Assembly (NCBI GenBank): GCA_034780895.1
Contig: JAUZTB010000118.1
Coordinates: forward strand, 26,058,753 to 26,122,752
Reading direction: 5' to 3'
DNA: 64,000 nt
DNA from: Rhynchobatus australiae
Taxonomy: Eukaryota
Part shown: positions 12,004 to 12,740 of the stretch, piece after piece
Layout of the letters: the number at the start of each line of letters is the position of its first letter
How positions within the stretch are numbered: the first letter of the stretch is position 1
Program-made: the position numbers and the translations under genes
Notes under the pieces: generated by a model
What the model was told of the DNA's origin: nothing
Database searches by the model: none
The model's input: the letters and a program-made list of their open reading frames with translations, nothing else

Positions 12004-12740
12004 CCCGCTCCTCGGGATGGGGAAGGTGGGTGACTGGCTGCTGCTGGCGGGCTTGCTGAGCGCCGTGTGCGCGCAGTTCCCCCGCCAGTGCGTGCGCCCG
12101 GAGGTGCTGCAGAGCGGCGAGTGCTGCCCAGCGCCGAGCGACGCGCCGGGGGACCGCTGCAGCTCCAGCCGGGGCCGGGGGACGTGCGCCGACGTGCGGG
12201 CGGACCCGGCGCCGCACGGCCCTCAGTACCCGCACGACGGCGCCGACGAGCGGGAGCGCTGGCCGCTCCGCTTCTTCAACCGCAGCTGCCGCTGCGCCGC
12301 CAACTTCGGCGGGTCCGACTGCGGCGGCTGCCGCTTCGGCTGGGCCGGCCCCGACTGCCGCCAGCCGCTGCGGCTCGTCCGCCGGGACGTGCTGAGCCTG
12401 AGCCCGGAGGAGAGGGCCCGACTGGTGTCGGCCCTGCATCGGGCCAAGCTCACCCCCCACCCCGAGCTGGTGGTGGCCACCCGCCGCCGGCCCGAGCTGC
12501 TGGGCGCCGACGGCCGCAGCCCGCAGTTCCACAACGTCTCCATCTACAACCTCTTCGTCTGGACCCACTACTACTCGGTGAGCAAGACCTACCTGGGCGC
12601 CGGACGCACCTTCGGCGGCATCGACTTCTCCCACGAGGGGCCCGCCTTCCTCACTTGGCACCGCTACCACCTGCTGCAGCTGGAGCGGGACATGCAGGTA
12701 ACCCTGGCCCCAGCCTCTCCGCCCCTCCCTCCCTTGCAAG
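11820..12740. promoter_or_regulatory. CpG island over tyrp1 5'UTR and first coding exon
   Basis: Dense CpG and very high GC by eye, against AT-rich, CpG-poor flanks. Confidence 0.9.
12017..12697 (+). CDS. tyrp1: TYRP1 coding exon 1: signal peptide, Cys-rich/EGF-like domain, metal site A
   Basis: ATG in strong Kozak context (gggATGG). Translation [25 protein letters not shown], 10 Cys, [31 protein letters not shown]. Donor CAG|gtaacc at 12698, phase 0. Confidence 0.97.

Follow-up and report, generated by a model that had tools for sequence, protein, structure and literature searches.

The window, a stretch of 64,000 nucleotides of the genome of Rhynchobatus australiae, contains a tyrp1 gene with six coding exons and five GT-AG introns (Table 1), and its frame of 529 aa is intact and free of internal stops. 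The first coding exon contains the signal peptide, the Cys-rich/EGF-like region and the first metal-binding region in 227 stop-free codons, which run from the ATG to ERDMQ and are followed directly by GTAACC, a GT donor. That this coding run is uninterrupted had been noticed in an earlier sequence-only reading of the window, and it is borne out here by the translation and by the alignment with human TYRP1, which covers the whole mature length of the exon product (PDB search, E=6e-90). The PDB matches of this product are to TYRP1 only. The three histidines of its first metal site, which we take to be the metal-binding residues, align with those of human TYRP1.

Table 1. Positions of tyrp1 exons and associated features in the window
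Feature	Position	Strand	Size or remark
TATA-like TATTTAAA	11760..11770	+	upstream block also in relatives; putative promoter element
34-bp tandem repeat, 5.4 copies	11823..12003	.	just upstream of ATG
tyrp1 first coding exon	12017..12697	+	681 nt
Site homologous to bony-vertebrate codon-129 phase-1 intron	12377..12378	+	no intron, no indel in ray
Internal 5' splice site, consensus-like, TCG/GTGAGC	12575..12583	+	predicted; cut after 12577
tyrp1 coding exon 2	17351..17555	+	205 nt
tyrp1 coding exon 3	21591..21758	+	168 nt
tyrp1 coding exon 4	25486..25665	+	180 nt
tyrp1 coding exon 5	27420..27566	+	147 nt
tyrp1 last coding exon	29148..29356	+	hydrophobic segment and tail to stop codon

By tree and alignment, the ray gene is the TYRP1 orthologue. 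In a tree built from TYRP1, DCT and tunicate rows, the TYRP1 clade is supported at 100/99 against the other rows, and the ray protein is nested in batoid TYRP1 beside Pristis; its identity to TYRP1 of Pristis pectinata is 97.5%. Searching the ray genome returned this one tyrp1 locus and no second one; the remaining five hits comprise TYR, two exons of DCT and two divergent tyrosinase-like genes. The long ORFs of window 29400-64000 include no evident neighbouring gene; the open frame at 41351-41758 resembles what is presumably the tail fragment of a LINE reverse transcriptase.

Downstream of the first exon, the internal exons have the human sizes, and the introns coincide with the positions found in a teleost tyrp1a locus (human 236/237, ~305, 361 and 421). 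The ray gene resembles vertebrate TYRP1 (PF00264; human structure PDB 5M8L and related entries) in having five downstream introns at matching places. It differs in the number of coding exons, which is seven in dromedary TYRP1 according to the available part of PMC6477024 and six in the ray, where the intron at codon 129 is missing. Since the encoded protein is a normal TYRP1 of normal length, no functional or enzymatic change is expected beyond the splicing of the long first exon; the fused exon suggests no new protein biology, and its interest is that of a small evolutionary marker in a gene whose protein is intact.

The first exon has the composition of a CpG island (GC 0.74, GC3 0.97, CpG observed/expected 0.94), a further difference from vertebrate TYRP1. 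The high GC is found on both sides of the codon-129 site, and GC3 falls to 0.32-0.47 in the later ray exons. The exon also contains a predicted splice donor, use of which would delete 120 nt in frame, equivalent to 40 residues including two conserved histidines. This donor coincides with the joins of annotated X2 isoforms in two Mobula species, Heterodontus and Carcharodon. Upstream of the ATG, the tandem repeat appears variable in copy number, its region being 118 bases shorter in a related organism. The motif GTCATGTG, which we take to be the M-box, does not occur in window 1-13000. At the start of intron 1 (window 12860-13600) lie degenerate pyrimidine-rich direct repeats, which are also present in contigs of relatives.

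Continuity of the exon at the codon-129 site

In bony vertebrates, the intron in question is in phase 1 and follows the first base of codon 129 (CDQRVLI/V, human numbering), so that 128x3+1 = 385 nt of human coding sequence precede it and 323 nt follow in the next exon. The ray exon is the counterpart of both these exons. The sequence-only reading had given the two human exon sizes correctly and had placed the split just after CDQ, which is not its position: the intron lies four residues later. The homologous site divides the ray exon into 361 + 320 nt. The shortfall of 27 nt from the human 708 nt amounts to 9 codons and is due to ordinary indels away from the junction; the spacing from the last EGF-like cysteine to the RR motif is identical in the ray and in bony vertebrates. 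A junction without indel is expected if an intron was precisely lost, and is equally expected if none was ever present.

A continuous exon could in principle be an artefact, either an intron collapsed by the assembly or a processed retrocopy, and we regard both as very improbable. Fragmentation of the assembly into 81,522 contigs and the very high GC of the exon would favour a collapse, and there are 0 N inside the exon. We compared contigs of 4 of the 24 listed sequencing runs, leaving aside small-share runs of more distant organisms; none of the 24 is of RNA. In the closest run (X1), no single contig has 31 nt to each side of the site, our rule for bridging, because its contig extends just 24 nt beyond the site; that of run X12 extends just 24 nt before it. 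Against a collapse, contigs of two other, related organisms span the site: in run X4 (organism B) a single contig covers 11991-12993, beginning ahead of the ATG and reaching into the next intron, and in run X11 (organism C) a contig covering 12195-12457 bridges it. None of the 4 runs shows a joint or a loose end at this position. The five GT-AG introns that the gene has kept, together with the single tyrp1 locus, rule out a retrocopy.

That bony vertebrates carry the intron is shown by short reading frames called on genomic contigs, which serve as probes of exon ends. Among 127 TYRP1-like fragments of <300 aa, 25 end their alignment at codon 129, and all 25 have glycine there, as results when the exon's G is read through into the GT of the intron. 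Another 32 begin at Val129 and are preceded by unrelated residues, 65 are uninformative, and five cross the site, namely three annotated spliced models, the bird-like fragment P0302 and the skate fragment P0193. The best matches of the broken fragments are to mammals, birds, reptiles, amphibians and teleosts, which gives the intron a shared position in the ray-finned and lobe-finned lineages. Its phase comes from the DNA of two teleost loci, where both donor and acceptor are seen. The exon flanks at these two loci are TTG/TA and TGG/TA and not MAG/G, the form of a proto-splice site, although a trace of the mode of insertion, be it such a site, a target duplication or a transposon, would not be expected to last.

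In one teleost tyrp1b gene (locus L008, 6205-7005), codon 165 is split by an additional phase-2 intron, and many fragments from other teleosts start where it lies. We considered whether it might be the same intron as one found at codon 167 of a tunicate gene and rejected this, since the 6-nt offset between the two implies that they are independent. Gene-specific insertion within vertebrates has also been described for slc26a1 and slc26a2 of teleosts, in the part of PMC12357937 available to us. Those gains resemble the TYRP1 case in kind, but they are younger and specific to teleosts, whereas the codon-129 intron is common to teleosts and tetrapods.

Distribution of the intron in the gene family and in cartilaginous fishes

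According to the accessible portion of PMC1890551 and to our tree, a single tyrp gene gave rise to both TYRP1 and DCT within vertebrates, and tunicates serve as the outgroup. The codon-129 intron is absent from all the relatives that we could compare. TYR and both tyrosinase-like genes of the ray are without it, and TYR has, like ray tyrp1, a long first coding exon, its first intron lying near 288. Teleost dct likewise has no intron there (one exon covers human 103 to ~202), but DCT differs from ray tyrp1 in having introns of its own near human 103 and 202. The tunicate tyrp1/2 introns lie at codons 97, 167 and near 254, so that an exon covering 97-167 spans the site. Taken together, TYR, DCT and tunicate tyrp1/2 indicate that the codon-129 intron is specific to TYRP1.

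Lamprey TYRP1 has alanine at residue 129, which is compatible with the intron and uninformative. In two sea lamprey isoforms (X2/X3; P0229 and P0232), alternative N-termini join at the position corresponding to human 66/67. Lamprey may thus have an intron or a cryptic acceptor there, for which jawed-vertebrate TYRP1 shows no counterpart. We set this join aside as evidence on codon 129, where it says nothing. A scan of metagenomes for tyrp1 returned 6 loci, three of them teleost and three tunicate-like, with 0 from cartilaginous fish and 0 from cyclostomes. The three tunicate-like loci are ~98% identical and represent one species. One of them (L010, 3487-11848) carries a complete tyrp1/2 gene, the first intron of which is apparently GC-AG; it has an intron at ~361 and no intron at 236/237, the position common to vertebrate TYRP1 and DCT.

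Among cartilaginous fishes, the fused exon is present in batoids, as the genomic contigs of relatives and the skate reading frame show. The skate frame (P0193, from the Leucoraja cluster of Logan) runs from the methionine across the site to ERDMQ and then continues into a non-homologous tail that starts with valine. This tail has weak matches at 31 scattered places of the ray genome (best E 0.0016), which is the behaviour expected of intronic repeat sequence, and the source of P0193 could be partly spliced RNA. Beyond this skate frame, the protein searches returned no exon-level reading frames from sharks, chimaera or lamprey; for sharks and chimaera the evidence is indirect and comes from the residues at and after the site.

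With a phase-1 donor, codon 129 is expected to begin preferentially with G, following the splice-site consensus. A codon starting with G is possible for residue 129 in 98 of 99 bony-vertebrate proteins and in 3 of 23 from cartilaginous fishes; the species are related, and the counts are not independent samples. The three cartilaginous fishes are the chimaera Callorhinchus, Pristiophorus and Pristis, which keep Val129, a residue that fits an intron either present or absent; the others have Leu (9), Arg (6) or Gln (5). In sharks, L, Q or R occupies the position in 12 of 13 proteins, some of them with indels beside the site. Moreover, amino acids with GC-rich codons are favoured at residues 129-236 in all 21 cartilaginous fishes compared, among them the chimaera. 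Their range does not overlap that of 25 bony vertebrates chosen from the 99; residues further downstream are alike in the two groups. From these residues, the intron is probably absent in sharks and chimaera as well.

A recent loss confined to this species, one of the two origins proposed in the sequence-only reading, is not supported. It is disfavoured because related organisms and the skate share the fused exon and because the residue evidence extends to sharks. An alternative with a wider reach is that the first jawed vertebrates already had the intron, that chimaeras and perhaps a few sharks retain it, and that it disappeared in elasmobranchs or in batoids only. The direct DNA evidence comes from batoids, and Val129 in Callorhinchus and Pristiophorus would agree with such a history. 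We consider it improbable, as it is opposed by the L, Q or R of nearly all the shark proteins with their adjacent indels, and by the GC-ward amino-acid shift at 129-236 that Callorhinchus shares.

Direction of the change and its use as a marker

The other origin proposed earlier, ancestral absence followed by a gain in bony vertebrates, is the one that the comparison favours, as TYR, DCT and tunicate tyrp1/2 are all without the intron; an old loss on the stem of cartilaginous fishes stands beside it as the competing account. The intron would have been inserted once, in the common ancestor of bony vertebrates, and the ray would retain the older uninterrupted first exon, probably like other cartilaginous fishes. 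The simplest history has a single gain on the stem of bony vertebrates, since this one event would account for all the observations, and we lean towards it with slightly better than even confidence. With the same cautious preference, we would regard the second intron of human TYRP1 as an invention of bony vertebrates, and the first exon of sharks, rays and chimaeras as a TYR-like long exon that was kept, turned into a CpG island and acquired a cryptic internal donor.

Several observations temper this preference. Valine or isoleucine is usual in the codon-129 column in genes without the intron too, which suggests that the invariance of the residue in bony vertebrates is partly structural. The bird-like fragment P0302, of unknown origin, also spans the site and counts against the simple reading. 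In addition, both DCT-specific introns of the region appear to be present in the ray; they thus seem older than the split of jawed vertebrates, and the TYRP1 intron could be equally old.

These ages bring in the competing history, namely that TYRP1 gained the intron early, after its split from DCT and before jawed vertebrates diverged, and that it was then precisely lost on the stem of cartilaginous fishes, for example through recombination between the gene and a reverse-transcribed mRNA. We judge this history possible and rather unlikely. The clean site without indel agrees with it, as does the derived GC-ward shift, which in cartilaginous fishes falls mainly in this exon. Of the changes that could be assigned to the cartilaginous side, 11 fall in this exon and 2 downstream; for the bony side the figures are 6 and 8 (small counts; Fisher p=0.046). 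The cartilaginous changes in the exon mostly raise GC. Such clustered changes suggest that the 5' end of the cartilaginous gene was remodelled, so a loss fits them as well, but a GC shift can also arise without the loss of an intron. A loss requires two events in place of one. It would also have occurred in a group of which the elephant-shark lineage shows fewer intron changes than any bony vertebrate, as stated in the text available of PMC3964593.

The region before the ATG bears on the same choice. Mammalian TYRP1 has a non-coding first exon, and this exon may be absent in the ray too: no polypyrimidine/AG acceptor-like site was found in the 316 nt before the ray ATG (window 11700-12016). 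One teleost tyrp1b gene does have an acceptor-like site before its ATG; if two adjacent introns are missing in the ray, one concerted loss would compete with two gains. The event that removed the codon-129 intron may thereby have removed a 5'UTR intron as well and drawn the coding region into the promoter CpG island. The character is not firm, however, as one teleost tyrp1a locus is also without an obvious acceptor in the 60 nt that precede the ATG.

Introns that set cartilaginous apart from bony vertebrates have been described before (Venkatesh et al. 2014, PMC3964593), and in the portion of that paper at hand, gains and losses of introns are used as phylogenetic support. The ray tyrp1 case is one example of this class of rare genomic change, the kind of character being the same, an intron present in the sampled bony vertebrates and absent in the cartilaginous ones. 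The main text and the accessible supplementary tables of the paper do not name TYRP1, and its supplementary intron notes may list it. Our search, which had most of the subscription literature outside its scope, found no paper on the exon structure of shark or ray tyrp1, with the accessible parts of PMC1890551, PMC3334994 and PMC8371935 included. Public annotations of many cartilaginous fishes probably encode the fused exon already, perhaps unremarked.

Outside teleosts, vertebrates seldom gain or lose introns, as far as the available parts of PMC12357937 and PMC3964593 report. Because of this rarity, a position that is occupied in bony vertebrates and empty in cartilaginous fishes can be used as a phylogenetic marker. 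If the gain on the bony stem is true, the codon-129 intron would mark bony vertebrates by a clean rare genomic change in a classic pigmentation gene, and would be one stage of a process in which the paralogues of the tyrosinase family, each in turn, acquired introns in their 5' halves. If the lamprey gene also proves to be without it, the intron gain would be dated. In practical terms, shark and ray tyrp1 calls for an exon numbering and a design of primers and guides other than the mammalian ones, for instance in work on colour variants or albinism, and so long and GC-rich an exon is easily lost to dropout.

The two divergent tyrosinase-like genes of the ray (L003, 212-949 of contig C30897; L004, 1351-2142 of contig C1485) are extra to TYR, TYRP1 and DCT. 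Both have long first exons, with a GC3 of 0.95 in L003, and their products show ~35-40% identity to TYRP1 and 42-48% to unnamed proteins.
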